Positions 3,756-17,062 of a stretch of 17,062 nt of DNA are shown piece after piece. Where the stretch lies: UHGV virus genome UHGV-0205375; one strand, given 5' to 3'. This DNA is from a virus. The translations under genes were made by a program, and so were the position numbers. Each line of letters begins with the position of its first letter. The stretch's first letter is position 1. The notes under the pieces were generated by a model, which was not told where the DNA came from, searched no databases, and saw only the letters and a program-made list of their open reading frames with translations.

Positions 3756-4421
3756 ATGCATCGTATAGACACGAAAACCGCGCAGAAGGATAAGTTCGGC
3801 GCGGGTAAGAACGGTTTTACCCGTGGTAACCCCCAGACCGGCACGCCTGCCACCGATCTGGATGATGACTACTTTGACATGTTGCAGGAGGAGCTTTGCA
3901 GCGTTGTGGAGGCATCCGGTGCCAGCCTGGAGAAGGGGCGGCATGACCAGCTGCTTACCGCGCTTCGTGCGCTGCTGTTAAGCCGCAAGAATCCGTTTGG
4001 TGATATCAAATCGGATGGCACGGTGAAAACGGCTCTCGAAAACCTTGGTTTGGGAGAAGCGGCAAAACTTGGCGCTGCTGTAGGGGTAACGGGTAATACC
4101 GGGAGAATATTGATCCCGGCTTTAATTGGTGGGGTTGAACAAAATATCATTTTCCAGTGGGTCTCTGGATTTCTTTCCGATTCGACTGGAGTAGCAACCG
4201 TGACATTACCTATGGCATTTCCTAACGCTCTGTTTCATGCCACTGCGATTGACTCAGGTGCTTCTGCTAGCTCGTGGAATGGATCGGCCGGCACAACGTG
4301 GGGCTTCGATATTGGTGGCTCTACCAGAACGACAGTCAAAGTTCGTGTTTTAAGAACAACTAATGGGACTTCATGGGCGGGTGCTTCAGCTGCCGGTTGT
4401 TTATTCGCAATAGGTTATTAA
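3756..4421 (+). CDS. Tail fibre protein; constant N-terminal part (Sc) fused to the currently expressed variable C-terminal part (Sv)
   Basis: 221-aa ORF with GGAG 7 nt upstream. N-terminus [40 protein letters not shown] is the conserved e14/Mu-type fibre N-terminus. The inversion crossover site lies inside this gene at 4033-4058. Confidence 0.8.
4033..4058. repeat. Left recombination site of the invertible segment (hix/gix-like, 26 bp, core TT at 4045-4046)
   Basis: CTCTCGAAAACC TT GGTTTGGGAGAA; its reverse complement TTCTCCCAAACC AA GGTTTTCGAGAG resembles the hix/gix sites as recalled. A 24-bp perfect inverted repeat (4045-4068) pairs with 5625-5648. Confidence 0.65.
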
Positions 4422-4422
4422 C

Positions 4423-4839
4423 ATGAAAACAAGATACTTTTATGACGCCGTTGATAACGGATTTTATATTGAACCTGAAAGCAGGTTTATTCCTGAATCA
4501 GCTATTGAAATCAGTGTTAACCTCTACAACCAATTTGCTGGTATTGCCTGGCCTGAAGGTAAAATGCTTGGTGCAGATAGCACTGGACTGCCCGCATGGG
4601 TCGATGCGCCGCCTCCAACGCATGAAGAGCAAATAGCGGCGGCAGAACAATATCGCCAGCAACGGCTACAGCAGATTGACGAAGTAACCGCCGACTGGCG
4701 GGTTGAATTAATGCTCGGCGATATAAGTGACGAGGATAAAGCGAAATTGTCTGAGTGGATGGCGCATAAAAAAGCGGTGAAAGCCGTCGATACGTCAACG
4801 GCCCCTAATGTCATCTGGCCTGAACAGCCGGAGGCGTAG
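4423..4839 (+). CDS. Tail fibre assembly protein (Tfa family)
   Basis: 138-aa ORF directly after the fibre gene. The motif LPAWVDAPPPTHEEQIAAAE is shared with the opposite-strand paralogue (LPAWADIPPPTHEELIEITE). Confidence 0.8.
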   Translation: MKTRYFYDAVDNGFYIEPESRFIPESAIEISVNLYNQFAGIAWPEGKMLGADSTGLPAWVDAPPPTHEEQIAAAEQYRQQRLQQIDEVTADWRVELMLGDISDEDKAKLSEWMAHKKAVKAVDTSTAPNVIWPEQPEA

Positions 4840-5254
4840 GCCATTCAATATCTGGCGCACCGGAAGTATCAACCAGTTCCAGTGCGTCCAGATAATCCAG
4901 CCACAAATTATATTGCGCCAGTTCGTCACCTTTCAGACGACCAATAGCGGCTTTACCGGGCCATTGTTTACTGTTCATGTATTCGTTGGCCTGGTTAATT
5001 AGTAACTGTCTTTCTGATTCAGTAATTTCAATAAGCTCTTCATGCGTGGGTGGAGGAATATCAGCCCACGCAGGCAGCGCATCATCTCCGGCAATACGGA
5101 CTTTTCCTTGTGGCGGTTCAGCCATAAACTCACTGACAATATTTTGATTCACTTCTTTCACATCTGATAAATCCCATCCCTCTGATTTATATTTATCAAT
5201 CATATCCACAGGGAAAAAAGCATTATGTCTGGCACTATAAACATATTTGTTCAT
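4811..5254 (-). CDS. Alternative tail fibre assembly protein (Tfa'), in the inverted orientation
   Basis: Start moved to the internal ATG at 5252-5254 (MNKYVYSARH...), preceded by an AGGGTG SD-like sequence; 147 aa. Carries the Tfa motif and overlaps the 3' end of tfa by 29 bp, as in e14 and Mu G segments. Confidence 0.75.
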   Translation of the reverse strand: MNKYVYSARHNAFFPVDMIDKYKSEGWDLSDVKEVNQNIVSEFMAEPPQGKVRIAGDDALPAWADIPPPTHEELIEITESERQLLINQANEYMNSKQWPGKAAIGRLKGDELAQYNLWLDYLDALELVDTSGAPDIEWPTPPAVQAR

Positions 5255-5274: not shown

Positions 5275-5643
5275 TTACTCGCCAACAGCCCACCAACAGT
5301 AATTCATGGTAACAGTTGGACTTGTCGAGGTTGTTCTAAAGGCAGAATAAAACCCTGTTAACCCTGTCTCTTCAGTTGTCATCATAAAACCACGACCACT
5401 CCCGGCAGTTGAACCACCATCACCAGAATGTGAAAGCAAGGCAATATCAGCTTTTTTAGGGAAAGGTATATTAAATTCTACCCGTAGTGTCTGACTCGCA
5501 AGCGTAGGAGACACACGCCCACGACCATATTGCAGGATTTTCCCGTTGGGTAATTTCATCCATCCATCACCACTGGCAAAAGAGGCCATGTCCGGTATCT
5601 GATTTTCCCCTGTCCCCACATCCCGTTTTGCCGCTTCTCCCAA
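5275..5643 (-). CDS. Alternative tail fibre variable C-terminal cassette (Sv'), promoterless until inversion
   Basis: 122-aa open frame whose 5' end (GEAAK...) begins inside the right crossover site and mirrors the ...LGLGEAAK junction of the expressed fibre gene. Inversion would fuse it to the constant part of 3756-4421. Confidence 0.65.
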   Translation of the reverse strand: MGEAAKRDVGTGENQIPDMASFASGDGWMKLPNGKILQYGRGRVSPTLASQTLRVEFNIPFPKKADIALLSHSGDGGSTAGSGRGFMMTTEETGLTGFYSAFRTTSTSPTVTMNYCWWAVGE

Positions 5644-5660
5644 ACCAACCTTTCAAATAT
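5635..5660. repeat. Right recombination site of the invertible segment (core AA at 5647-5648)
   Basis: TTCTCCCAAACC AA CCTTTCAAATAT. The inner half-site plus core is identical to the reverse complement of the left site; it lies 60 bp upstream of the invertase start. Confidence 0.65.
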
Positions 5661-5719: not shown

Positions 5720-6283
5720 ATGATTTACGGGTATGTTCGTGTATCAACAAATCATCAGGATACAGAGTTGCAACGTCTTGCACTTGAGTCAGCTGGCTGT
5801 GAGCGAATTTATGAAGAATATGCCAGTGGCAGAACAGCTAATCGCCCTGTGTTAAAGGAATTAATTACGGTGATGAAAAGTGGAGATGAGTTGATTGTCT
5901 GGAAGTTAGATCGGATAGGGAGAAATGTGCTGCATGCGCTATTGATGTTTCAAAATCTGCACGAAAAAGGTGTTAATTTTCGGAGTATTACAGATGGCGT
6001 AGACCTGAAAACAGCAAGTGGTCGCTATAATTTCCGTAATATTCTTTCTGCTGCGCAGTATGAATCTGATTTGAATAGCGAGCGAACTTTAGCTGGTTTG
6101 GCTATTGCCAGATCCAAAGGCCGGATTGGTGGGCGTAGACCGAAGTTTAGCGACGAGCAGTGGCAACAGATGGGAGCGCTCATAGCGGCAGGGAAATCAC
6201 GGCGTTATGTTGCACGTATCTATAACGTTGGGCTATCAACCCTATATAAACGATTTCCTGTTACTGGCATTCAAACGAAATAA
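5720..6283 (+). CDS. pin: Serine DNA invertase, Pin/Gin/Hin family
   Basis: 187 aa with AGGAG 8 nt upstream. N-terminal YGYVRVSTNHQ (catalytic Ser), WKLDRIGRN, GRIGGRRPKF and a C-terminal HTH (VGLSTLYKRF) follow the Gin/Pin pattern, and the gene abuts the invertible segment. Confidence 0.9.
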   Translation: MIYGYVRVSTNHQDTELQRLALESAGCERIYEEYASGRTANRPVLKELITVMKSGDELIVWKLDRIGRNVLHALLMFQNLHEKGVNFRSITDGVDLKTASGRYNFRNILSAAQYESDLNSERTLAGLAIARSKGRIGGRRPKFSDEQWQQMGALIAAGKSRRYVARIYNVGLSTLYKRFPVTGIQTK

Positions 6284-6587: not shown

Positions 6588-7226
6588 ATGAAGATGAAAA
6601 ACATGTCTGAAGTGTTGACCCAAGAAAAGCTTATTTTTGTTGCCCAGAGACTAAAGGCCCTCGCGCAGTCAGGCCTGACCTATTCAAAAGACGTCTTTGA
6701 CAAGGAACGCTATGAAGCCTTGCGTGAAATTGCCGCTGGACTGCTGAGTTCGCAGTTTGATATTAGCCGCAATGATTTGTTTCATGTATCGGAAACGGGT
6801 TACGCGACGCCCAAAACAGATGTGCGTGCGTTTATCCTGCGTAATAATCGTATTCTGATGGTGAAAGAGGCTGCAGATGGATTATGGAGTCTTCCTGGCG
6901 GATGGGCAGATGTTGGAGATACACCTTCTGAAGCTGTGCGTCGAGAGGTCGAAGAAGAAACCGGATTAAAAGTCAGAGTGACTAAACTATTGGGAGTTTG
7001 GGATCGTAATCTTCACGGCCATCCGCCTTTACCCTGGCATGTTTACAAGCTGATTTTTCTCTGTGAAGAAGTAGGTGGCAGCCTGTCAATCAGCCATGAG
7101 TCACTCGATGCTGATTTTTTTGATGTCAACGACCTGCCTGAATTGTCGCTTTCAAGAATTGTGCCTGAGCAGATTGCTGTCAGCCTGAGAGTAGCGAAAG
7201 GTGATGAAAAAACATGGTTTGATTAA
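6588..7226 (+). CDS. NUDIX hydrolase with an N-terminal helical domain
   Basis: 212-aa ORF with a Nudix box GGWADVGDTPSEAVRREVEEETGL (G-x5-E-x7-REVxEExGL). The start is ambiguous among ATGs at 6588, 6594 and 6603; substrate unknown. Confidence 0.75.
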   Translation: MKMKNMSEVLTQEKLIFVAQRLKALAQSGLTYSKDVFDKERYEALREIAAGLLSSQFDISRNDLFHVSETGYATPKTDVRAFILRNNRILMVKEAADGLWSLPGGWADVGDTPSEAVRREVEEETGLKVRVTKLLGVWDRNLHGHPPLPWHVYKLIFLCEEVGGSLSISHESLDADFFDVNDLPELSLSRIVPEQIAVSLRVAKGDEKTWFD

Positions 7227-7255
7227 CTTTCTTCTGCAACCATTAAGGAATGGCA

Positions 7256-7894
7256 ATGATATTCAACGCTAAGGGTTTTTTATTCGATATGGACGGTACG
7301 CTGGTTGATTCAACAGCCGTAGTGGAAAGCGTCTGGAGAGATTTTTGTGCAGAATACGGTCTTGATTCTCAGGCTGTGATTGCTTACGCACACGGGCGGC
7401 AAACGATTGATACACTAACGCATTTTATTGGTGCAGGTGAGAAAACCAATAAAATCGCGGCCTCACTCGAAGAGGTTGAAATCAACACGACAGAAGGCGT
7501 TACTGAAGTAAAAGGGGCCGCTGCACTCTTATCAAAACTGCCACCGGATAGCTGGGCACTTGTCACTTCTGCAGGCAGAATGCTTGCCGAAAACAGGATG
7601 AAAGCGGCTAATCTCCCCTTACCCAGAGTAATGGTGTGTGCAGAAGATGTAATGACGGGAAAACCAAGTCCCGAGGGTTACATCAAAGCAGCTTTGGCTT
7701 TGGGCCTTGAGCCTGGTGAATGCGTGGTATTTGAGGATGCATCTGCGGGTATAAAAGCAGGGCTGGCAAGTGGAGCTTCGGTAATAGCTGTTCAGCCTGA
7801 CGCTCTGGGAGCATCTGAAGCCCATGCCGTCAGCGAACTGTCTGACATTATGGTCAAGATTTCCGGAGAACGTTTCAATATCATCTGTGGTTAA
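7256..7894 (+). CDS. HAD-IA family phosphatase (beta-phosphoglucomutase-like sugar-phosphatase fold)
   Basis: HAD motif I FDMDGTLVDS at the N-terminus and an acidic motif (VVFEDASAG) near the C-terminus. Start placed at the second ATG (7256) because AAGGA at 7244-7248 is then 7 nt upstream; the ORF track starts at 7250. It lies 23-29 bp after the NUDIX gene, so probably co-transcribed. Confidence 0.8.
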   Translation: MIFNAKGFLFDMDGTLVDSTAVVESVWRDFCAEYGLDSQAVIAYAHGRQTIDTLTHFIGAGEKTNKIAASLEEVEINTTEGVTEVKGAAALLSKLPPDSWALVTSAGRMLAENRMKAANLPLPRVMVCAEDVMTGKPSPEGYIKAALALGLEPGECVVFEDASAGIKAGLASGASVIAVQPDALGASEAHAVSELSDIMVKISGERFNIICG

Positions 7895-8226: not shown

Positions 8227-8273
8227 ATTCGTAATGCGAAGGTCGTAGGTTCGACTCCTATTATCGGCACCAT
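8227..8273 (+). tRNA. Partial tRNA-Thr(CGU) gene: 3' 47 nt only (anticodon loop through CCA); attachment-site core, not a functional tRNA
   Basis: ATTCGTAATGCGAAGGTCGTAGGTTCGACTCCTATTATCGGCACCA contains the anticodon CGT, T-arm GGTTCGACTCC and acceptor 3' end with CCA, matching the 3' part of enterobacterial thrW as recalled. The upstream 80 bp has no D-arm or 5' acceptor half. It sits 13 bp from the 3' end of the integrase gene. Confidence 0.7.
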
Positions 8274-8286
8274 TTAAATCAATAAG

Positions 8287-9450
8287 TTACACATCATTAG
8301 TACCTTCCTTATTTTTTGACTGGGACAAATTTGGGACCGATGGGTTCAGGATCGAGTCTATTTGCCGTGCGTGTTCGGTAAGGTGATTAGGTGCAAGGTG
8401 AGCATATCGACGAACCATTTCGATAGACTCCCAGCCTCCCATTTCCTGTAACACTGACAACGGGACTCCGGCTTGAACCAGCCAACTTGCCCAGGTGTGT
8501 CTCAAGTCGTGAAATCTGAAATCATCAATACCAGCCCGTCTCAGCGCCGCTTTCCAGGCTGTGTTTGCGTCATACCGCATCTTCCTGACTGTTGGCGCTT
8601 TCGTTCCGTCTGGTTTGGTACAGCTTTCCTTGTACACAAATACCCAACGGTGATGATTCCCGATTTGTTTTTTCAATACGCGACATGCAGTATCATTCAG
8701 CGCAACGCCAATTGCGCGGTTTGATTTACTCTCTTCCGGGTTTATCCATGCCACCCGGCGCTGCATATCTATTTGTTGCCATTCAAGGTTGATGATGTTC
8801 GAGCGTCTTAGGCCTGTTGCCAGTGCAAATTCAACAACAGACTTTAATGGCTCCGGACATTCATCAATCAGCCTTTGTGCTTCATGGGGCTCCAGCCAGC
8901 GGATCCGTTTATTCTTTGGTTGGGGCACTTTAATAATTGGTGCCTTATCCAGCATTTTCCATTCACGCTCTGCGGCTCTTAGTAGGGCCTTTATAAATGA
9001 AAGATGCGTAGCCTTCGTTGCAACGGACGCTGGTTTTGGCGTGTATTCTGGAACAGGTTTCCCTTTTTTTCTGCATGCTTCTGCCCTGAGTTTCCAGTTT
9101 TCCTCATGACGCCGGTTCGTCATTTTCTGCATTGCTGAATAAATTTTTGATTCAGTAATGTCTCTTAGTTGCATTCCTGCGAAATGTTGAAGCCAGAATC
9201 CGATCCGGCTTTTGTCATCGTCCAGTGATTTTTTATGTGCTTTCTCTTCAAGCCACCTGACACACGCTTCCTCGAACGTTATATCAGGTATTTCACCAAG
9301 TTTGCTGACCCGCCATGCTTCAGCCTTTAGCTTGTCATGGAGTTCTGTCGCCTGCCTTTTGTCCTTTGTTCCAAGAGACTGTTTAAATCTTTTACCGTTC
9401 GGCAATGTGAAACTGGCGTACCATATTTCACCTCTGCGGAAGAGTGACAT
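8287..9450 (-). CDS. int: Tyrosine integrase, lambdoid/P22-like
   Basis: 387 aa with C-terminal catalytic region [16 protein letters not shown]...MVRRYAHL (H-x-x-R and Tyr). The 3' end abuts the tRNA-Thr fragment; P22-type integrases are known to use thrW. Confidence 0.9.
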
Positions 9451-9677
9451 TTTCTTTCCTCTGTTATGCCATCACCCGCGCTCACCTGGACAGTATGCAG
9501 CGGAGACTGAAGAGCCGCAATGCAGGCTTGTCGTGTTGTGAGGTAAGGAGATTTATTCTTAGTGGGATCTTTGCGTGTTGCCTGAAGACGCCCTGTGCGT
9601 ATCCAGTTAATGGCAGTCGGTCTGGATATCTTGAGAAAATGACAGGCCTCATCGAGTGTGAGGCTGTATGGCTCCAT
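9327..9677 (-). CDS. xis: Excisionase (Xis), P22-like
   Basis: Start taken at the internal Met ([29 protein letters not shown]...), giving 116 aa with an HTH-like N-terminus. Overlaps the 5' end of int and is coupled by a 1-nt overlap to the upstream gene. Confidence 0.6.
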
Positions 9678-9982
9678 TATTTCACCTCTTGCTGTGACAT
9701 TGTTGAAAAATGGATACCAGCTCGTTGCTGCCAGACGATCCAACCGAGAGTCATATCCCATGCCATGTATTCGTTATCGCCGTTTTTTGCTCTCCGACGA
9801 TCTACTAAGTCACCGAAACGCTTTTCCATGAATAATTCATAAGCTTCGCGTTCATCTGGTTCTACTTCCAGAGATAGGAGTGCGATTTCATAAGCACGGC
9901 GCTCAATATCGTCTCGCACGTCAAGGCTGCTGATACGCTCTTTAATTTCTTTAATCAGTTCTTTGTCGGTAAAAGTGGTCAT
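9677..9982 (-). CDS. Hypothetical early protein, YfdT-like by size and synteny (101 aa)
   Basis: Acidic 101-aa ORF with stop/start overlaps to both neighbours. Last gene of a five-gene run whose sizes (120/274/178/120/101 aa) match the CPS-53 yfdP-yfdT block as recalled. Confidence 0.5.
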   Translation of the reverse strand: MTTFTDKELIKEIKERISSLDVRDDIERRAYEIALLSLEVEPDEREAYELFMEKRFGDLVDRRRAKNGDNEYMAWDMTLGWIVWQQRAGIHFSTMSQQEVK

Positions 9983-10344
9983 TATGCTCCAGCCTCCGGT
10001 GCTTTTGGCATTACTGCCCAGTGAGTGATATTGACGTTTTCAAGGTCCCCGACCTGAAATGTCCACTGCCATTCTCCGGTTTCTTTTTGTCCCCAGGTGT
10101 ACCAGAGAGAACGCCAGCCAATTAGCCAGCCTTCTCCGTTAGCATCGAATAACAAAACACTTTCATTTGCTGGTGGCAGTTCAGTTGACACTGGTATTAC
10201 TTTGTTTTCCTGTGCTGCACATTTAGCTTCAAGCGCATCGAATTTACGCACTAGGTATTCAGCATCTGTTTCATTTACTTTCAGATCTCGCGGTACACAT
10301 CTCCCACGAAGAAACCCTTCCATTTCGAAAACATTCATGCGCAT
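9982..10344 (-). CDS. Hypothetical early protein, YfdS-like by size and synteny (120 aa)
   Basis: 120-aa ORF overlapping the upstream HD-domain gene by 10 nt. Confidence 0.5.
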   Translation of the reverse strand: MRMNVFEMEGFLRGRCVPRDLKVNETDAEYLVRKFDALEAKCAAQENKVIPVSTELPPANESVLLFDANGEGWLIGWRSLWYTWGQKETGEWQWTFQVGDLENVNITHWAVMPKAPEAGA

Positions 10345-10871
10345 TTGCGTAACTCCGATAACTCGTTAAAGCGTTCCATAAACATCCCGTAGGCATGGCC
10401 CGGAGCCAGTGGAATCACGTTGAACATCTCTGTTGCCGGGATACCTTCCAGTACAGGCCAGAAAGAGCCATCATCAAGCCCGAGATCGCGGCGTTCGGTT
10501 GCCAGCATGATGAGATCGGCATATTTCACGGGCGTACTCATAACTGGGGGTAACCCGTATTTCTCACGGATTACGGCGTCTATTTTTTCTTCCATTTGTT
10601 TATAGTCAGGAAGAAGGCGTTTCAGTGGTGCGGGAATGTCCTGGCAATACGCTTCTGTTGCATCATGCATTAACGCTTCAAAAGCAAATTCCTGCGGCAC
10701 CAGCTGGCTGCAAAGAACCGCATGTTGGGCGACGCTGTAGAAGTGCGAAAGATGACCGGCAAAGCGACAGATATTTGAAAGGGAAACCGCGATATCGTTA
10801 ATATCGATGTCGTCTTTATTTATCCTGTCATAATAAAAATGCTTCCCGGAAAAAGTTTTAATAAATGACAT
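10335..10871 (-). CDS. yfdR: HD-domain phosphohydrolase (YfdR-like 5'-deoxynucleotidase family)
   Basis: Start taken at the internal Met (MSFIKTFSGKHFYYD...), giving 178 aa. HD-domain residues are visible (VAQHAV... ALMHDATEAY). Confidence 0.7.
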   Translation of the reverse strand: MSFIKTFSGKHFYYDRINKDDIDINDIAVSLSNICRFAGHLSHFYSVAQHAVLCSQLVPQEFAFEALMHDATEAYCQDIPAPLKRLLPDYKQMEEKIDAVIREKYGLPPVMSTPVKYADLIMLATERRDLGLDDGSFWPVLEGIPATEMFNVIPLAPGHAYGMFMERFNELSELRKCA

Positions 10872-10998
10872 TTTGTTCTCCACGTATATGCGCTGCACCG
10901 CGCTGAATTCTGGTAAAAAGAATCCCTCACCATCCGGCGATTATTGAGTAAATTACGTTTCCATAAATGCCCCCGCAGGGGCATTTGCAGTAATGAAA

Positions 10999-11823
10999 TC
11001 AGGCGGTGAAAGTACCAATAAAGGTTTCTACTTTGCTGTCCTTGAATTTCTCAACAAGCAGATCACGAAATTCGTTAGCCATTTCTTCCTGCACCGCCTC
11101 CAGCTGAATAATGCGTAGAACCAGTACAGGACGATCGCCAGTGATAATACTGAGGCGTAATTTAAACGGACGTTCTTTCAGACCTTCAAACGGAACGCAT
11201 TTAAATTCAAATGCCACTGGCATAATGTCTTTGGTCTTCGCTTCGACAGACTCCATCAGGGAGCGTTTGCCGCTGAAGTCATTATCTTCAAAATCAGCGG
11301 TCTGGTTTGCTTCAATCGTGATTTTACGGACAGCCGCAGCCGCTTTTGTTGCCTGAATAGCGTCACCATTAGCATCAAAGCCCACAAGATAGTCGGCCCA
11401 GTCTTCAATCCATTCTGCCAGTGACTTCTGGGAGTTACGCTCGCCGTTAACAGACAACAGAGCAGAGAACGGTGCTGTCTTTTTCAGTTTGAGTGTGGCG
11501 GTGTTATCTGCGTGGCCTGGTTCATCAATAGTACCTAGGTTAAGCACACTGACGGCACGCATATTATCAGCATCGATAAAGCAGCGGGTGCCTTCATCTG
11601 CAAGATCTTTAGAATAACGGGTAAAGTCATCGATGCTGGCAGTGGAAAGCGCACCACGGAAACGGAAGCGATTTAAATTAAATTTTTCCAGATCATGAAT
11701 GCGGAAATTCTCAGGCAATGCCACAGCATCGGCACCAATCTTACTGATAATTTCATTAACACCCTGAGCAGAAATAAGGGCATGGATTTGATTAATTGCG
11801 GTTGCGTCTAAGTTCTGAGACAT
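10999..11823 (-). CDS. yfdQ: DUF2303-type phage protein (YfdQ-like)
   Basis: 274-aa ORF directly upstream of the HD-domain gene; the name is assigned from recalled size (274 aa) and position upstream of yfdR, not from a motif. Confidence 0.6.
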
Positions 11824-11888
11824 AATAAGTCCTCACTATATAAAGATATTCAGTGATGAGATAAATAATCAGTTAATTAAAAACGATA

Positions 11889-12251
11889 TTAACGACCTGC
11901 TGCGCGGAGTTTTCCGTCAGGTTCACCGGCAAGAGTCAGTAACTGTCCCTGGTCTTCCTGCAGAATAGTCAGGCGACCACCGCGATTGACATACATCGGC
12001 GTTTCGGTGGTGTCTTCTTCGGAAATTTTCCCGCGGTTAGTCGGGCGAACATATGAGAGTTTGTGTTTGATTTTCACTCGGTTCTCATCAAACGGTTCGA
12101 TTTCCAGGTTGAGCGAGACCTTACCTTTGGTTTTCGTGTTCATCACACCGGAAGCGACTTCACTGAGAACTGCGCCGAATTTGGTTTCAAATACGCCGCC
12201 GTCCAGCTCCCCGATAAATGCCTGCACATCAGTACTGCGTTCGCTAGCCAT
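11889..12251 (-). CDS. Hypothetical early protein, YfdP-like by size and synteny (120 aa)
   Basis: Start at MASERSTDVQAF... (ATG at 12249-12251). The longer 226-aa track ORF extends through GC-rich structured non-coding sequence with an Arg-rich nonsense translation. Confidence 0.55.
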   Translation of the reverse strand: MASERSTDVQAFIGELDGGVFETKFGAVLSEVASGVMNTKTKGKVSLNLEIEPFDENRVKIKHKLSYVRPTNRGKISEEDTTETPMYVNRGGRLTILQEDQGQLLTLAGEPDGKLRAAGR

Positions 12252-12387
12252 TTTGCTGCTCCTCATCATATCGACCCTGCAAGGTCGGTTAGTTTCTCCA
12301 CAAAACAGAGAAGAACACCTGCGGTGACTGCCGCCCGGATGGATTGGGTTATGAGCCCGTCGTCCGGTGATGCTCTTCTCTGTTTTG

Positions 12388-12433
12388 TAAAAAGGACGGT
12401 ACCAGCCGGAAGCAAGGGTACAAGCTGGTACCG
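12388..12433 (-). terminator. Putative intrinsic terminator for leftward (minus-strand) transcription
   Basis: 10-bp perfect GC-rich inverted repeat CGGTACCAGC (12397-12406) / GCTGGTACCG (12424-12433) with a 17-nt loop. On the minus strand it is followed by TCCTTTTTAC. The large loop makes it weaker than a canonical terminator. Confidence 0.35.
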
Positions 12434-12719
12434 CCAAGACTACACACAGCATAAAGTTGTGGTGCCGGGTGCCTCCCGGTGCCTGGCGAAGGTTGCACAC
12501 CAGGCGGGTGGGTATCCACAGAAGGTCGACTGTCAGCCTCAACCTTAACCCGCGTGCGCTGAGCCGCATTCACCACAACGCTAAGGATTCTCTCTGGTTG
12601 AAAATACTTAGCTGTTATGTGCCTGCTTTTAGCCACATCAGGCGAGGTGGACCTAGTTATTCCCCAACAACAAGGATTCGGTTAATCTGGTTATCCCCAA
12701 CAACGCAAAAGGAAAAGAA

Positions 12720-13154
12720 ATGTCCGGTAATATCTATACGCTGTACAAATCCCACTGTGAAAATGTTGGAAAGTATCGGGGCATTGAAATCAGTGGGGTA
12801 GTGTCATCAGTCGAAATAAGCAAAGTTGAATCAAGGGCAACATTACTTACTCTTTTGGACCTTGTCTTACATGAGCACCGGAAGAAATTCGGCACTCCCT
12901 ATAATCAGTTGAATGGGAAAAAGGCTCTGGTTCACCTTATTCTGATGAAGCATCACTGGATGCCAAAACAGATTAATGAGATGAAATTTGATGAACTTCT
13001 TCTTTCAATTCAGGATGAACTCACACTTGATAAAATAAGCGTAACCGCCCAGAAATTTTTAGATTATCGAGACTGGAGATCACAAATTCATCACTTTGAT
13101 GATTTTGACGAAAATGAATGGGATCCTAATTTGTCTGCACAATATCTAAAGTAA
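12720..13154 (+). CDS. Hypothetical protein (144 aa), orphan gene oriented against the leftward early operon
   Basis: ATG at 12720 with AAGGA 6 nt upstream. Preceded by two direct repeats GTTAT(T)CCCCAACAAC (12656-12671, 12690-12704). The 3' end overlaps the convergent 68-aa gene by 29 bp. No recognisable family. Confidence 0.55.
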   Translation: MSGNIYTLYKSHCENVGKYRGIEISGVVSSVEISKVESRATLLTLLDLVLHEHRKKFGTPYNQLNGKKALVHLILMKHHWMPKQINEMKFDELLLSIQDELTLDKISVTAQKFLDYRDWRSQIHHFDDFDENEWDPNLSAQYLK

Positions 13155-13332
13155 CATCCTGTGATAAAACCGTGATTTCCTGATCCAGTTTTTTTAAGGA
13201 GTCTATTGTTTCCTGTCGATAAGACAGCACTTCACGAAGCTGGTTTATAGCTGCCAGCTTCTTTGTCATCCACTCATAAATTTCCTCATCTGTGTAGCCA
13301 GGCGCGACGATTTTGGGTTCTGTTTTGTGCAT
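13126..13332 (-). CDS. Hypothetical protein (68 aa), first gene downstream of the putative pL
   Basis: Start taken at the ATG at 13330-13332, preceded by GAGGAGA 7 nt upstream; the track's TTG start at 13347 lies inside that RBS. No Arg-rich N-terminus, so not obviously an N-type antiterminator. Confidence 0.5.
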   Translation of the reverse strand: MHKTEPKIVAPGYTDEEIYEWMTKKLAAINQLREVLSYRQETIDSLKKLDQEITVLSQDVTLDIVQTN

Positions 13333-13496
13333 TTCACATCTCCTCAAGTTATCAGTTACTTGTTGATGGGGACCAGATTGTTAAAGAGCTAAGCGTCCTG
13401 TAGGGCGCTTTTTTGTTGCTAACGAATCATCCTGGACTTCATATGCCCCAGGCGGCTACTTCGTGGGCGTCCTGCCTGTTCGTTGTCGGTAAAATG

Positions 13497-13538
13497 ATAT
13501 TGCTACTTAAAGTTGCAAAAATCAACTACAAAAAGTAG
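13497..13538 (-). promoter_or_regulatory. Putative OL/pL: two 13-bp operator sites (CTAC-N5-GTAG type) interleaved with -35 TTGATT and -10 CAATAT on the minus strand
   Basis: Minus-strand reading is CTACTTTTTGTAG - TTGATT - 17-bp spacer containing CAACTTTAAGTAG - CAATAT. Same architecture and 23-bp operator spacing as the OR/pR region at 15303-15344. Confidence 0.5.
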
Positions 13539-13844
13539 AAGTTAAGGGCATAAAAACGCATTTTGAAATTAATTCATTGAATTTACAGGTAAAATATTTT
13601 GGGGGCTATGATCAAAAAATTATATTGTGAAGTTAGCTGAGTTGTAGAACGTGATGGATTGTTTCATTGTGGCTGAGATCAGTATGTGATCTAGTTAATC
13701 ATCAAGTGGGGAGAAGTCAATCATGAGAGTATTGTTGAGTTTTTGGAGACTAAGTGTAAAACGGTAGGGAATTTACTACTCAATGGATTGTGTGATTTAG
13801 CCTCGATAGTAAGAAAACTAGGGCAGGTCATAGTCAAAAACTTA

Positions 13845-14129
13845 TCAAAACATAAATTTGGCGAGACCTAAAATCGCCAAGCCTGTTGCAACAGTCCATG
13901 CGATCTGTTTATTTACGGCTGATGAAATAGCGCTGTTGACTTCACTTAGGCTAGGTTTTTTTGACAACTTTTCATCTATATCTATTTGTTTTTGAAGGAT
14001 AACAGCGACATCGCGTCGGGTGTCGGAGAGAGCGTTTCGCAAATCACGAATGTCAGCTCTCATCTCTGCGAGATTTGTTTTTATATCCTCAACATTCGCT
14101 TCTAACTTAGCGACTCGGGCTTCAAGCAT
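13845..14129 (-). CDS. Small coiled-coil protein with C-terminal transmembrane anchor (XhlA-like architecture)
   Basis: Start taken at the ATG at 14127-14129, preceded by GGAGGTG 6 nt upstream; 94 aa. MLEARVAKLEANVEDIKTNLAEMRADIRDLRNALSDTRRDV is coiled-coil-like and the C-terminus IAWTVATGLAILGLAKFMF is hydrophobic. The track's longer ORF would overlap the upstream gene by 56 nt. Confidence 0.55.
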   Translation of the reverse strand: MLEARVAKLEANVEDIKTNLAEMRADIRDLRNALSDTRRDVAVILQKQIDIDEKLSKKPSLSEVNSAISSAVNKQIAWTVATGLAILGLAKFMF

Positions 14130-14196
14130 GTCATCACCTCCGCCATCTCCACCGTGTCTTCTAATTGTGGGAAGTTCACTATTAAATGGTACTACA

Positions 14197-14544
14197 TTAT
14201 TTTGCGGCGTCGGCATTTTTTTCATCTTCCGTTTTTGCTGGGAACTTTTCATTTACCCAGTTCAAAACTGAAAACGCATTTATATGAATTTCATTTCCAC
14301 AATTGTTGCATATTAGTGAAAAGTAATACTGGTTAGCAGTATCAGAATAAATGCTTTTTTCAGTAAAAACATTCACATAACTACCAAGTTTCATAGTACA
14401 TGGCATGCCCACATTCGCGCTGACTTGAGGCACAGTCAATCTGTCGTGTCCACATAGTGTACATTTTAGATATATATTCTTTTCTGAGAAATAAGAGACC
14501 AACATATCCATGTTAATCTTTTCGAATCCCTGCTCACTAGCCAT
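14197..14544 (-). CDS. Zinc-ribbon-type protein (115 aa), unknown function
   Basis: Two CxxC pairs (CTLCGH and CNNCGN) about 50 residues apart. Starts 15 bp downstream of the cI stop on the same strand, so probably co-transcribed with the repressor. Confidence 0.55.
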   Translation of the reverse strand: MASEQGFEKINMDMLVSYFSEKNIYLKCTLCGHDRLTVPQVSANVGMPCTMKLGSYVNVFTEKSIYSDTANQYYFSLICNNCGNEIHINAFSVLNWVNEKFPAKTEDEKNADAAK

Positions 14545-14559
14545 TATATGCCCTTAGAA

Positions 14560-15300
14560 CTATAACCGATTGTATTTTATTGACTCATGAATCAACGCCT
14601 TGCCCATTACATAAAGCTGATCCTGCGATTTTTCATCGATGTACCATTTCTCATAGGCAGGGTTATCCGAAAGAACGGCTAGCTTGTCACCTTGCATTTG
14701 AAGACGTTTAACATGAAAAGTCTTACCGTAAACGAAAGAGTAAATTCCATCAGTCTGGAAGTGACGAACAGAAATGTCGACAAACAGTCGATCTCCGGAA
14801 ACGAGAGTAGGGGACATACTATCGCCATTTACAGTCATAACCTTAATATCATCCTGAGAACGGTTACCGAAAAGAGAACGGGCATGTTCTGTTGTGAACT
14901 CAATGGCGTAGAGCACATCAACATAGTCTGAAAGCATATAGGTTCCAGGTCCTGCGCTAACGCTAAGATCTAAAACTTCTATCCTGTATACGTCGGGTTT
15001 AGTTGGATTGGGGATGCTTGCCATTTCCTTACATCCTTCTCTCTCGCCAACACCATATTCTAAATATGAAGCCGATACCCCCAGAGCCAACGCAAGTTTA
15101 TTCATGACAGAGGCACGAGGCTTCGCTGCGCCGATTGTGTATCGCCGCGCCATTTCATATGTAACGCCAACAAGACTTTTGAGTTGGGTGACAGAAATTC
15201 CCTTGTTTGTCATTAACTCGTTTAGTCTCTTGGCGAAATCTGGATACTTCTGTTCTTCTACCATAGGTAGAAGATTACTCACATCACATACGCTCGTCAT
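14560..15300 (-). CDS. cI: CI-type prophage repressor (HTH plus LexA/S24 peptidase domain)
   Basis: HTH region ISVTQLKSLVGVTYEMARRY and an S24 autoprotease domain with GDSMSPTL (Ser) and HVKRL (Lys). The track start at 15321 would place the operators inside the CDS; start set to the ATG at 15298-15300 (possible leaderless mRNA), with the ATG at 15262-15264 as an alternative. Confidence 0.85.
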   Translation of the reverse strand: MTSVCDVSNLLPMVEEQKYPDFAKRLNELMTNKGISVTQLKSLVGVTYEMARRYTIGAAKPRASVMNKLALALGVSASYLEYGVGEREGCKEMASIPNPTKPDVYRIEVLDLSVSAGPGTYMLSDYVDVLYAIEFTTEHARSLFGNRSQDDIKVMTVNGDSMSPTLVSGDRLFVDISVRHFQTDGIYSFVYGKTFHVKRLQMQGDKLAVLSDNPAYEKWYIDEKSQDQLYVMGKALIHESIKYNRL

Positions 15301-15302
15301 TT

Positions 15303-15344
15303 CTATTTTAAGTAGTTGCAATTCGCTACTTTAAGTAGCATTAT
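15303..15344. promoter_or_regulatory. Putative OR with divergent promoters: operators CTATTTTAAGTAG (15303-15315) and CTACTTTAAGTAG (15326-15338); pR -35 TTGCAA (15316-15321) and -10 CATTAT (15339-15344)
   Basis: Two near-palindromic 13-bp sites spaced 23 bp centre to centre between divergent cI and cro. The pR spacer is 17 bp, and the cro AGGAG RBS follows at 15361-15365. Confidence 0.55.
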
Positions 15345-15371
15345 CCCCTCTGGATTTCAGAGGAGAAAGAT

Positions 15372-15635
15372 ATGTCATCTCAAAACTACACCGAGAAAGC
15401 AGTAAAGGCTGCGGGAAAGTCTTTATCTGAAGTAGCTCGTCGCTTTGGTTTTAAATCTACTCAATCTGTCGCTAATTGGGTAATTAACAATCAAGTCCCG
15501 TCGGAACGAGTTTTACAACTTTGTGAGCTGGGGAACTGGTCCGTAACCCCCCATGAGCTGCGTCCTGATATTTATCCAAATCCAAATGATGGATTACCAG
15601 AGTGCTATTCAAAAGTTAGCGGTTCAGTTGCGTAA
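15372..15635 (+). CDS. Cro-like HTH regulator (YdaS-like)
   Basis: 87 aa, divergent from cI, AGGAG 6 nt upstream. The segment STQSVANWVINNQVPSERVLQLCELGNWSVTPHELRPDIY resembles YdaS/Cro-type proteins as recalled. Confidence 0.7.
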   Translation: MSSQNYTEKAVKAAGKSLSEVARRFGFKSTQSVANWVINNQVPSERVLQLCELGNWSVTPHELRPDIYPNPNDGLPECYSKVSGSVA

Positions 15636-15663
15636 ACGTAACCACAGAAACGAGGAGTTAACC

Positions 15664-16215
15664 GTGGGTAAGCATCACTGGAAAGTAGAAAAACAGCCTG
15701 AGTGGTACGTGAAAGCTGTCAGAAAAACTATCGCGGCGTTGCCGGGTGGTTACGCTGAAGCTGCTGACTGGCTGGATGTAACAGAGAACGCATTATTTAA
15801 CCGCCTTCGTGCCGATGGCGATCAGATTTTCCCGCTGGGATGGGCAATGGTTTTACAGCGCGCAGCTGGCACTCACTACATTGCGGATGCTGTCGCACAG
15901 TCTGCTGGTGGGGTGTTCGTATCGCTTCCTGAAATTGAGGAAGTAGAGAACGCCGATATAAACCAGCGCCTGCTGGAAGTCATCGAACAGATCGGGAGTT
16001 ACTCAAAGCAGATTCGTTCGGCAATCGAAGATGGGGTAGTGGAGCCACACGAGCAGACAGCAATTAATGATGAGTTGTATCTGTCAATTTCGAAGCTCCA
16101 GGAGCATGCAGCACTGGTCTACAAAATCTTTTGCGCTCCAGAAAAGAGTGACGCCCGCGAGTGTGCAGCTCCGGGCGCCGTGGCGTGTCGTGACTGTGGA
16201 GAAACTAACGCATGA
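15664..16215 (+). CDS. CII-like lysogeny regulator (CP76/YdaT-analogue class), start uncertain
   Basis: Start placed at GTG 15664 because GAGGAG lies 7 nt upstream and it falls after the cro stop; 183 aa. The track's ATG at 15553 would overlap cro by 83 nt. The family call rests on position downstream of cro. Confidence 0.45.
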
Positions 16216-16550
16216 ACAGTTTAACAACACACTACCGTCGCTCGCAACTGATTGCGCTTCCTGTACCGGGTGGAAAAGCGAAGGTGGAGTATTGCTATGC
16301 AGTAAATGTACCAGGTGACAGGGAAATTGTAACCCACAGCTTTGCAGAGTGGGCTGTGGGGGATTTCAACCGGCAGAAGGAGACAGTCCTTTGCGACAAG
16401 TTAACCGCTGGTTCAAAGATCACTACGGAGTGCCCGTCAGAGTCATTCGTTGGGAGCCGGAAACACAACGGGTTATCTACCTCCGTGAAGGCTATGAGCA
16501 TGAGTGCTTCAGCCCGCTCGAACAGTTTCGTCGTAAATTCAGGGAAATAG
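16212..16550 (+). CDS. Hypothetical protein between the cII-like and replication genes; frame ambiguity
   Basis: ATG at 16212 overlaps the upstream TGA, and the ORF ends 9 nt before the replication-gene start. The overlapping frame 16349-16570 reads more protein-like in its 3' half ([33 protein letters not shown]...). Confidence 0.35.
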
Positions 16551-16559
16551 AGGTCGGTC

Positions 16560-17062
16560 ATGAGCACTAAATTAACCGGCTATGTATGGGATGGTTGCGC
16601 TGCGTCAGGCATGAAATTATCCAGCGTGGCAATTATGGCCCGCCTGGCTGATTTCAGTAATGACGAAGGTGTGTGCTGGCCATCAATTGAAACCATTGCC
16701 CGTCAGATTGGCGCGGGGATGAGTACCGTCAGAACGGCTATCGCACGGCTGGAAGCAGAAGGCTGGTTAACGCGTAAGGCGCGTCGCCAGGGTAACCGCA
16801 ATGCGTCGAATGTTTATCAGCTTAACGTTGCGAAGCTTCAGGCAGCGGCATTTTCTCAACTGTCAGATTCTGACCCGTCAAAATCTGACGCATCAAAATC
16901 TGACCCGTCAAAATTTGATGCGTCGAAATCTGGCAAAAAAGCGGGTTTTCACCCGTCAGAATCTGGCGGGGATCCGTCAGTAAAATCAAAACATGATCCG
17001 TCAGATAAAAAAACTTCTCGTCCGGACGCTTCGCAACCGGACACGCAGCCGACCAAACACAC
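16560..17062 (+). CDS. Replication initiator (O-like, HTH N-terminal domain), 5' partial: runs off the window end
   Basis: ATG at 16560 with GAGG 7 nt upstream; open frame to the window end. HTH-like N-terminus (SSVAIMARLADFSNDEGVCWPSIETIARQIGAGMSTVRTAIARLEAEGW) and a repetitive linker (DPSKSDASKSDPSKFDASKSGKK) encoded by the iterons. Confidence 0.7.
   Translation, partial: MSTKLTGYVWDGCAASGMKLSSVAIMARLADFSNDEGVCWPSIETIARQIGAGMSTVRTAIARLEAEGWLTRKARRQGNRNASNVYQLNVAKLQAAAFSQLSDSDPSKSDASKSDPSKFDASKSGKKAGFHPSESGGDPSVKSKHDPSDKKTSRPDASQPDTQPTKH
16869..17010. repeat. Putative replication origin iterons inside the initiator gene
   Basis: Four contiguous 15-bp repeats (TCTGACCCGTCAAAA at 16869-16883 and 16899-16913; TCTGACGCATCAAAA at 16884-16898; TTTGATGCGTCGAAA at 16914-16928), then degenerate CCGTCAGA-type copies and an A-rich tract near 17000-17010. 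Confidence 0.6.

Follow-up and report, generated by a model that had tools for sequence, protein, structure and literature searches.

A yfdP-yfdT block among the early-left genes of a temperate phage of the SfV/SfIV family

Introduction

Five consecutive minus-strand genes of 120, 274, 178, 120 and 101 aa in the virus genome UHGV-0205375 had been predicted to be the yfdP-yfdQ-yfdR-yfdS-yfdT block known from the K-12 cryptic prophage CPS-53, here joined to an integration module of another type. What kind of phage carries these genes, how does their arrangement relate to that of K-12, and what might they do? Analysis of the whole 17,062-nucleotide stretch (hereafter the window) identified an SfV/SfIV-family temperate phage genome with Mu-like baseplate genes, in which yfdP-yfdQ-yfdR-yfdS-yfdT are an accessory block of the early-left operon, flanked by the immunity region on one side and by xis-int-attP(thrW) on the other. 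This is the usual position of the block within an SfV-type phage, and the feature is an ordinary one that has been described before. With moderate confidence, we read the block as an early-left host-takeover function that would damp initiation on the host chromosome through DnaA.

Results

Five genes matching K-12 yfdP-yfdT

The predicted correspondence in order and size was upheld by pairwise alignment with the K-12 MG1655 proteins (BLASTP), in which all five matched at full length with 0 gaps and 96-99% identity. The DNA is colinear as well, a single blastn alignment joining window positions 9621-12270 to K-12 positions 2473585-2476234 (96.4% over 2650 nt). Such a match is far beyond chance.

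11889-12251, minus strand: yfdP, 120 aa; opens the block; 117/120 residues identical to K-12 YfdP (98%)
10999-11823, minus strand: yfdQ, 274 aa; DUF2303; 272/274 identical to K-12 YfdQ (99%)
10335-10871, minus strand: yfdR, 178 aa; HD-superfamily phosphohydrolase; 174/178 identical to K-12 YfdR (98%)
9982-10344, minus strand: yfdS, 120 aa; C-terminal DUF551; 115/120 identical to K-12 YfdS (96%)
9677-9982, minus strand: yfdT, 101 aa; 97/101 identical to K-12 YfdT (96%)
9621-12270, no strand assigned: colinear homology to K-12 CPS-53, yfdP through ypdJ (blastn)

Packing from yfdR down to xis is tight and operon-like: yfdR and yfdS overlap by 10 nt, yfdS and yfdT share 1 nt, and yfdT and xis overlap by 1 nt, the TAA stop of yfdT running into the xis ATG (TAATG). 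A mechanical list of open reading frames gave longer versions of two genes, taking the yfdP frame to 226 aa from an ATG further upstream, at 12569, and the yfdR frame to 187 aa from a GTG at 10898. The 120-aa YfdP and 178-aa YfdR begin at the same ATGs as the K-12 forms, each with a Shine-Dalgarno-like sequence ahead of it (GAGGAG or GGAGAA). We rejected the 226-aa frame (11889-12569; gp34 in the SfIV annotation, with the region annotated by PGAP as a frameshifted hypothetical) as a real protein because its first 106 codons lie inside a conserved structured leader and have no K-12 homologue and no family match.

YfdS scored just above the Pfam cut-off for DUF551 (22.2 versus 22 bits). YfdP matched PHROG 204 (function unknown), and its homologues carry PF27127 in precomputed Pfam annotation. 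The AF2 model of YfdP (pLDDT 67) contains one long helix and a 3-stranded sheet and had no significant neighbour in the PDB; matches to an NTF2-like fold were weak (E of at least 0.018, TM below 0.3) and were treated as noise. In fold, neither the YfdQ nor the YfdP model resembled annealases, loaders or any protein of solved structure, and PADLOC defence models did not match YfdP, YfdQ or YfdR. A YfdQ homologue is present in the PDB as an unpublished 36-chain entry (9O7M), which suggests a large oligomer; a literature search for this entry returned nothing relevant.

A structured leader upstream of yfdP

The region upstream of yfdP is occupied by an untranslated leader in two parts.

12386-12609, minus strand: leader 5' part, untranslated; similar to STnc100, a prophage sRNA; closes with a GC-rich hairpin and then a U-run
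12270-12385, minus strand: leader 3' part, a stem of about 25 bp around a conserved loop; immediately precedes the ribosome-binding site of yfdP

Folding of positions 12255-12640 gave -167 kcal/mol (z = -7.5), and an RNAalifold consensus from 5 phages predicted 42 pairs, 6 of them changed on both sides. In ST64B, LLS, phiES15 and Lys8385Vzw, compensatory changes preserve both the terminator hairpin and the long-range stem GUUGUGGUG/CACCACAAC. At gathering threshold, Rfam returned no match anywhere in the window; a permissive search gave a sub-threshold match of the 5' part to STnc100 (RF02076) over the full model length (43.4 bits versus a gathering score of 47, E = 4e-8). A DicF match in the permissive search was at chance level, and the 3' part matched no Rfam family. 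As for an antiterminator like HK022 put, sequence comparison gave it no support: blastn at word size 7 showed nothing similar in the HK022 early region or in P22. A promoter scan was uninformative because it returned fewer promoter-like sites than shuffled sequence did.

Integration module and comparison with K-12

Downstream of yfdT lies a P22-type integration module that ends in a fragment of thrW.

9327-9677, minus strand: xis, P22-type excisionase, 116 aa from Met29 of the 144-aa open reading frame 9327-9761
8287-9450, minus strand: int, P22-type tyrosine integrase, 387 aa; Pfam Phage_integrase
8227-8272, plus strand: attP core; same sequence as the last 46 nt at the 3' end of tRNA-Thr (thrW)

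Xis is 87% identical to P22 Xis over 116 aa, with Pfam HTH_17 and PHROG excisionase matches that begin at residue 29 of the open reading frame, and Int is 90% identical to P22 Int over 387 aa, with no meaningful similarity to K-12 IntS. The attP core matches thrW in the E. coli chromosome L001 (10828-10873) and lies past the 3' end of int, 14 nt from its stop codon; BLAST homology to a proA-thrW-int prophage junction begins exactly there, at window position 8227. ARAGORN found no complete tRNA in the window, as expected, since attP holds just a fragment of thrW. The original prediction that the block adjoins a P22-like int/xis beside a thrW fragment is thus confirmed, and the K-12 annotation agrees with its placing of CPS-53 at argW.

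CPS-53 (KplE1) carries the same five genes in the same order and orientation and with the same sizes, but at argW with TorI and IntS, which are unrelated to the P22-type pair at thrW in the window. On the other side of the block, blastn homology to K-12 starts again only at window position 16793, so K-12 is without window positions 12271-16792, and both the leader and the entire immunity region are gone from it. What K-12 retains after yfdT, inside ypdJ, is the opening 56 nt of a xis of the P22 type, its ATG turned into ATA. Across 5,426 complete E. coli genomes, at least 1,184 have the P22-type xis|yfdT junction, compared with 390 that have the K-12-type yfdT|torI junction. The xis|yfdT arrangement is the standard SfV/SfIV/SfII layout and is commoner in E. 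coli than that of K-12, which looks like the derived state given its xis relic with a dead start codon. The module shuffling that had been proposed is real, but its direction is the reverse of that implied: the window has the standard layout, and K-12 is apparently the one that changed.

Distribution of the block in other phages

SfIV, SfV, SfII and many lambdoid phages carry this block at the same position, and in ST64B, LLS, phiNP and Lys8385Vzw yfdP-Q-R are the first annotated leftward genes after the repressor. Genes of the yfdP/Q/R type have been called common early-left-operon genes (Genome Res 2025, PMC12315714). Other genes stand in place of yfdS and yfdT in ST64B, LLS and phiNP. HD proteins of the YfdR family are far more widely spread, occurring in 284 phage records, among them virulent and jumbo phages that infect Caulobacter, Bacillus, Stenotrophomonas and Pseudomonas.

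YfdR as an HD-superfamily protein

An HD domain had been proposed for the 178-aa protein, and the translation contains the motif residues H50, H69-D70 and E73; none of the 4 substitutions relative to K-12 YfdR falls on them. YfdR also matched PHROG 318, annotated as 'deoxyribonucleoside 5' monophosphate phosphatase' (E = 3e-110), and Atu1052, an HD protein of known structure (PDB 2gz4, E = 3e-14). Pfam cut-offs were marginally missed (YfbR-like, 25.2 versus 25.9 bits; HD_3, 17.5 versus 22.5 bits), and it is the motif, the PHROG 318 match and the homologue in the PDB that together place YfdR in the HD superfamily.

The earlier description of YfdR as a 5'-deoxynucleotidase stands in so far as this is the RefSeq name of K-12 yfdR, but it requires a qualification. 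YfdR shares with YfbR, the E. coli HD-domain 5'-deoxynucleotidase (PDB 2paq), membership of the HD superfamily and the H...HD...E metal/catalytic motif, whereas the two are very distant in sequence (phmmer E = 0.88) and YfdR reaches only 20.5 bits against the NCBIfam YfbR equivalog NF003009 (cut-off 122). By these scores, YfdR is not a YfbR orthologue. Activity as a dNMP phosphatase has been reported, with an affinity for nucleotides far below YfbR's (PMC4776307 citing Zimmerman 2008).

Proposed action on host initiation through DnaA

An effect of yfdQRST on DnaA-dependent initiation, likewise mentioned in the original prediction, is borne out by the literature. In pull-downs, K-12 YfdR binds DnaA domain I via Phe46, and DnaA F46A loses binding (PMC4776307, Noguchi & Katayama 2016); YfdR also competes moderately with DiaA as well as with DnaB for DnaA (PMC4776307). 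In multicopy, yfdQ plus yfdR plus either yfdS or yfdT is the minimal set that inhibits oriC initiation, as seen by flow cytometry, and oriC replication is inhibited in vitro (PMC4776307). Within K-12, yfdP is dispensable for the DnaA-related phenotype and yfdQ is required for the multicopy inhibition. The effect appears only with multicopy supply, initiation being unaltered when yfdQRST is deleted, and an artefact of overexpression is a possibility that the authors of the study themselves concede (PMC4776307).

The window contains the gene set for such an inhibitor (yfdQ, yfdR and at least one of yfdS/yfdT), and the frames of yfdQ, yfdR, yfdS and yfdT are all intact. From its 98% identity to the tested K-12 protein, we infer that the window YfdR binds DnaA domain I at Phe46 and inhibits oriC initiation. 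On this basis, the block would be silent in a lysogen of the live phage and, after induction or infection, would be transcribed leftward through the long structured leader. YfdR, with YfdQ and YfdS/YfdT, would then damp host oriC initiation while the phage replicates, much as lambda P does via DnaA domain III, and the weak dNMP phosphatase activity of YfdR would be secondary or separate.

Discussion

Alternative roles for the block

Two features of the distribution weaken the DnaA-directed reading. The replacement of yfdS and yfdT in ST64B, LLS and phiNP means that the K-12 'minimal set' is not conserved, and the spread of the YfdR family over 284 records from phages of distant hosts, virulent jumbo phages among them, points to a general enzymatic role, as a specific contact with E. 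coli DnaA cannot be conserved there. It is accordingly possible, if unlikely, that YfdR serves phage growth mainly as an HD-domain (deoxy)nucleoside-monophosphate phosphatase, reshaping dNMP/dNTP pools or removing modified or signalling nucleotides with YfdP and YfdQ as partners, and that DnaA binding is incidental to overexpression. The intact motif, the homology to Atu1052, the RefSeq name and the annotation of PHROG 318, 6402 and 8467 as dNMP phosphatases all fit this role, and yfdR has been listed as a reported CMP phosphatase (PMC10870394), but deletion of yfdR did not raise CMP yield in the same work. The low nucleotide affinities and the poor YfbR equivalog score also argue against this role, and the need for yfdQ and yfdS/T in the initiation phenotype would be left unexplained. 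The reported stress phenotypes lead elsewhere: cells deleted for CPS-53 as a whole, for yfdQ or for yfdS are more sensitive to H2O2, and those deleted for yfdQ also to MMS (cited in PMC4776307). Together with the near-intact state of the block in an otherwise decayed K-12 prophage, they are what could be said for genes kept because low-level prophage expression aids host tolerance of oxidative, acid or alkylation stress, as reported for CPS-53. We consider this very improbable, as the phenotypes are weak and, in intact inducible phages, the genes lie in the repressed early-left operon behind a terminator-containing leader, not in a moron position with its own promoter.

A role in phage replication or recombination is improbable too. 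The yfdPQR core might stand in for a missing helicase or loader by way of DnaA domain I and DnaB, or supply an unrecognised recombination function in the slot of the Rec module. YfdR does grip exactly the DnaA surface that recruits DnaB (PMC4776307), and the 36-chain entry of the YfdQ homologue, suggestive of a large oligomer, also fits such a role. All 13 of the yfdR-bearing lambdoid phages or prophages inspected have an O-like initiator (HTH_36 N-terminus) with no annotated helicase or loader, a count that ignores shared ancestry in genomes chosen by similarity; the background of such 'O-only' modules is 34/314 lambdoid phages, or about 11% (PMC12315714). Their O-like proteins are of at least two C-terminal types, and the two modules are separated by differing immunity regions, which indicates that the linkage of yfdR to O-only modules has survived recombination. 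The association may nevertheless be co-inheritance of one early-region super-module. DnaA boxes (TTWTNCACA) number 0 in the window where 1.6 are expected, and a related prophage has none in its replication region and no enrichment overall. ArgO145 carries both the cluster and a complete Rec module (PMC12315714), making a hidden recombinase unlikely, and the YfdQ and YfdP models resemble neither annealases nor loaders. We give equally little credence to the specific proposal that the yfdP-Q-R core (with S/T) is the partner of O-only replication modules, with YfdR using its hold on the face of DnaA domain I that binds DnaB and DiaA to draw the loading of host helicase away from oriC and towards the phage; if true, it would explain a replication class that the 2025 survey termed 'not yet understood' (PMC12315714).

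Comparison with known systems

The DnaA-directed inhibition that we favour has functional precedents: lambda P, which binds DnaA domain III, and B. subtilis SirA and E. coli DiaA and Dps, which bind domain I, are small DnaA-binding proteins that lower initiation, and the Phe46/Phe49 surface is likewise the one that SirA and DiaA use (PMC4776307). The likeness is functional and drawn from the literature; no relationship of these regulators to YfdR in sequence or fold was found.

Among lambdoid phages, the P-Q-R trio has the same order as in the window and comes first among the early-left genes in ST64B (sb37-35), LLS (gp39-37), phiNP and ArgO145, behind a structured leader related to that of the window. 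The trio there is of a yfdP/yfdQ/yfdR(yfbR) type, and these phages differ from the window in having integration modules of other kinds, other genes in place of yfdS and yfdT, and YfdR proteins only 66-68% identical to that of the window.

Closely related to the window are SfV, SfIV and SfII, serotype-converting phages of Shigella flexneri, which are colinear with the window at 97-99% DNA identity in the order attP, int, xis, yfdT-yfdP, leader, and which share its Mu-like baseplate genes; the corresponding early-left region is orf29-31 in SfV and gp28-34 in SfIV. They differ in the type of immunity region (13487-15639 in the window) and in the segment between the tail-fibre genes and attP, where the gtrABC of SfIV gives way in the window to an invertase and to hydrolases of the NUDIX and HAD types. 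The gtrA-gtrB-gtr(type) O-antigen modification cassette is absent from this segment of the window, which thus shares the SfV-like backbone without being a serotype converter of that kind.

The yfdP-yfdT block is accordingly a widespread module, already described in SfV, ST64B, LLS and K-12, and the binding of DnaA by YfdR is published, so that the finding itself matters little beyond the correct annotation of a known module. Its residual value lies in the natural, intact and inducible context that it gives to the K-12 relic, with its leader RNA, its immunity region and its O-only replication module all in place, for genes whose physiology has so far been probed only by multicopy expression from a decayed prophage, and whose homology to genes of SfV had already been pointed out for YfdQRST (PMC4776307).

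The yfd block and its identity to CPS-53

A mechanical list of open reading frames contained five adjacent minus-strand frames in window 9677-12251 which, with the K-12 start codons, give products of 120, 274, 178, 120 and 101 aa (yfdP, yfdQ, yfdR, yfdS and yfdT, respectively). Every one of these starts is preceded by a Shine-Dalgarno-like sequence, and the packing is operon-like:

yfdP-yfdQ, minus strand: 65-nt gap
yfdQ-yfdR, minus strand: 127-nt gap
yfdR/yfdS, minus strand: overlap of 10 nt
yfdS/yfdT, minus strand: overlap of 1 nt
yfdT/next gene, minus strand: yfdT stop overlaps the next start (TAATG)

In pairwise BLASTP, the products were 98, 99, 98, 96 and 96% identical to YfdP, YfdQ, YfdR, YfdS and YfdT of K-12 MG1655 over their full length with no gaps, and window 9621-12270 is colinear with DNA of the cryptic K-12 prophage CPS-53 (96.4% over 2650 nt). 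These alignments bear out, at exactly the predicted coordinates, an identification of the yfdP-yfdT block originally made from the sequence alone. The yfdQ-yfdR spacer (10872-10998, 127 nt) contains, on its coding strand, a weak hairpin resembling a terminator (10940-10927), where the record of phage Ayreon also has an annotated terminator; this hairpin could set the ratio of YfdP/Q to YfdR/S/T expression.

Direction of the module exchange

The integration module adjoining the block is of P22 type, with Int 90% and Xis 87% identical to those of P22, and Int shows no relationship to IntS of K-12. The gene thrW, which lies beside the same integrase on E. coli chromosomes, has its last 46 nt reproduced exactly at window 8227-8272; since ARAGORN found no whole tRNA in the window, this stretch is the attP core. 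The original prediction of a P22-type backbone for integration beside a fragment of thrW was thus correct, and the module shuffling that it proposed relative to CPS-53 is real (TorI/IntS/argW versus P22-type), but the direction is reversed, K-12 probably being the changed side.

Two lines of evidence bear on this direction. K-12 homology continues 56 nt beyond the stop codon of yfdT, entering the P22-type xis at its 5' end, where the ATG start has become ATA, and stops before torI, while K-12 ypdJ shares 91% identity with codons 1-46 of a 144-aa ORF in the window (window 9621-9761; CPS-53 locus L004, 10095-10235). On these grounds ypdJ is a relic covering the yfdT end and 56 nt from the start of a P22-type xis, and its retention indicates that the yfdT/P22-type xis junction is ancestral, the TorI/IntS/argW module having replaced the P22-type one in the CPS-53 lineage. 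In agreement, among 5426 complete E. coli genomes the window's junction (9440-9800, counted where coverage was at least 80%) is present in 1184 and the K-12 yfdT/torI junction in 390, so that the window's arrangement is the rule and that of K-12 the variant.

Overall, CPS-53 is a decayed relative of the window's phage type. K-12 matches outside the yfd block comprise the tail-fibre remnants yfdL (3818-4067) and yfdK (4808-5117), together with 16793-17051, which falls within an O-like replication gene. Because sequence matching window 12270 directly abuts sequence matching 16793 in K-12, CPS-53 has lost 4.5 kb (window 12271-16792), including the leader upstream of yfdP and the entire immunity region, which makes yfdO what is left of the replication gene's C-terminal part. 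The corresponding window segment contains the leader, an ECs1072-family gene, the repressor, cro, a CII-like gene and the beginning of the O-like gene.

Protein families and proposed role

YfdQ matches DUF2303 over its full length (Pfam, E = 2e-92) and YfdS carries a C-terminal DUF551 barely at the Pfam threshold; YfdP and YfdT had no family match in the local Pfam copy, and YfdP homologues carry the newer Pfam family PF27127. None of the PADLOC defence models matched YfdP, YfdQ or YfdR. The HD domain predicted in the 178-aa protein was recovered as an HD phosphohydrolase motif (H50, H69-D70 and E73), with matches to PHROG 318 (dNMP phosphatase, E = 3e-110) and to the HD protein Atu1052 (PDB 2gz4, E = 3e-14). 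Its scores are just below the cut-offs of Pfam YfbR-like and HD_3 and far below that of the NCBIfam YfbR equivalog (20.5 bits against 122), so that YfdR belongs to the HD superfamily without being a YfbR orthologue. A structure entry named 'YfdQ Protein' (PDB 9o7m, 36 chains per entry) is homologous to YfdQ (window 10999-11823; E = 1e-44) and may show what DUF2303 does; two fold libraries did not return it, and a search for an accompanying publication found none.

The yfdQRST genes were isolated for suppressing hda-185 over-initiation when in multicopy, with a minimal set of yfdQ and yfdR together with yfdS or yfdT, yfdP being dispensable (Noguchi and Katayama, Front Microbiol 2016, PMC4776307). 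In that work, multicopy yfdQRST inhibited initiation in the wild type and in dnaAcos, seqA, DARS and diaA backgrounds, purified YfdR bound to domains I-II of DnaA in a Phe46-dependent manner and competed moderately with DiaA and DnaB, and YfdQRST-enriched extracts inhibited oriC replication in vitro. Gene deletion gave no initiation phenotype, and the authors allowed for an overexpression artefact; they also noted homologues in SfV (ORFs 29-31) and, citing Zimmerman et al. (2008), described YfdR as structurally homologous to YfbR and as having a much lower affinity for nucleotides. The originally stated link of yfdQRST to DnaA-dependent initiation was correct. A 2025 lambdoid survey (PMC12315714) describes early-left operons (ST64B, phiNP, LLS, ArgO145) as carrying the yfbR(yfdR)/yfdQ/yfdP trio fairly often, regarding its function as unknown and a hidden recombination role as unlikely. 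With these two papers, the block is already in the literature in both K-12 and phage contexts, and it is an ordinary feature.

The block sits between the immunity region and xis, and DnaA-directed activity is reported for proteins 96-99% identical to those of the window (PMC4776307). We lean slightly towards a reading in which the block would form part of a repressed leftward early transcript and, after induction, would damp host initiation during phage replication. The main rival, that YfdR is primarily a nucleotide phosphatase, is less probable but carries some weight: tblastn placed the YfdR family in 284 phage records, many from virulent or jumbo phages that infect Caulobacter, Bacillus, Stenotrophomonas and Pseudomonas, across which conservation of a specific E. 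coli DnaA contact is impossible, and yfdS and yfdT are not conserved beyond the SfV/Stx group.

Damping of host initiation aside, yfdR is associated with a particular replication module. In the early-right region of all 13 yfdR-bearing lambdoid genomes inspected (loci L001, L003, L007 and L012-L021: the E. coli thrW prophage, SfIV, ST64B, phiNP, LLS, 2H10, Stx2a_1447, cdtI, Providencia PSTRCR_117lys, 1720a-02, Lys8385Vzw, mEp460 and Ayreon) there is an O-like initiator and no annotated helicase or loader, SfIV being covered only up to the start of gp42 and the LLS statement being taken from PMC12315714. All four initiators with a Pfam match have an HTH_36 N-terminus, the Providencia initiator matched no Pfam family, and a PerC-like yfdN homologue follows the initiator in most of the 13 loci. 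Such "O only" modules occur in 34 of 314 lambdoid phages, and their replication has been called not understood (PMC12315714). A functional link between yfdR and these modules is nonetheless improbable, because the sample was chosen by similarity, the association could be mere co-inheritance, and DnaA boxes were found neither in the window nor in the replication region of a related prophage.

A structured leader upstream of yfdP

Window 12255-12640 (minus strand) has a predicted fold of -167 kcal/mol (z = -7.5 versus 100 shuffles). This untranslated leader (12270-12640) is often unannotated in phage records and is mosaically conserved in ST64B, LLS, phiNP, phiES15 and Stx phages. The 5' half of the leader (12386-12609) matches the full Rfam model of STnc100, an sRNA family already known from prophages and related to PasD (bioRxiv 10.64898/2026.05.13.724894), at 43.4 bits (gathering score 47, E = 4e-8), and ends in a GC-rich hairpin and U-run whose pairing is kept among phages despite differing stem sequence. 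The 3' half (12270-12385), with no Rfam match, forms a stem of ~25 bp enclosing a strongly conserved loop, and 6 of its 42 predicted pairs are changed on both sides among five phages. A 226-aa ORF overlying this RNA (11889-12569, minus; SfIV gp34, fused to yfdP), labelled 'frameshifted hypothetical' by PGAP, almost certainly yields no protein and looks like an annotation artefact.

In ST64B, LLS, phiNP and Lys8385Vzw the repressor gene and yfdP directly flank the leader, but in phiES15 its 5' half precedes kil-gam instead, making the leader a property of the left operon and not of yfdP. That the RNA may control or gate read-through into the yfd genes is a reasonable idea; LLS has no N homologue (PMC12315714), and no similarity was found between the leader and the HK022 early region where put is located.

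Comparison with Shigella phages

The Shigella phages SfIV, SfV and SfII match the whole window at 97-98% over 52-64% of its length, and share its gene order:

1 to about 5300: Mu-like baseplate and tail-fibre genes
Next: cargo slot, then attP (core 8227-8272)
8287-9450: int
9327-9677: xis
9677-12251, minus: yfdT to yfdP
Beyond: leader, immunity region, start of the O-like replication gene

A pair of 29-nt inverted repeats (4040-4068 and 5625-5653; 93% complementary, containing TTGGTTTGGGAGAA) encloses 1.6 kb with tail-fibre C-terminus and tail-fibre-assembly genes in opposite orientations, adjoined by a resolvase/invertase-family gene (5720-6283), apparently an invertible host-range segment of the Mu G/e14 P type. 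An ECs1072-family phage-associated gene (12720-13154, plus) is oppositely oriented within the leftward operon and convergent with a 73-aa ORF (13126-13347; overlap of 29 nt). Behind a gene for a 253-aa S24-peptidase/HTH repressor (14560-15321), and on its strand, come two genes of low GC content (37-38%) and unassigned function (14197-14544 and 13845-14252), occupying the place of rexAB/sieB-type exclusion genes.

The slot adjoining attP holds gtrABC in SfV and SfIV, whereas the window has a NUDIX hydrolase (6588-7226; Nudix_N, weak PADLOC PDC-S07 match) and a HAD-family hydrolase (7250-7894), a pair found at ≥99% in other E. coli genomes. The immunity region (13487-15639) is likewise unlike that of SfIV and unlike that of the closest E. 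coli prophage.
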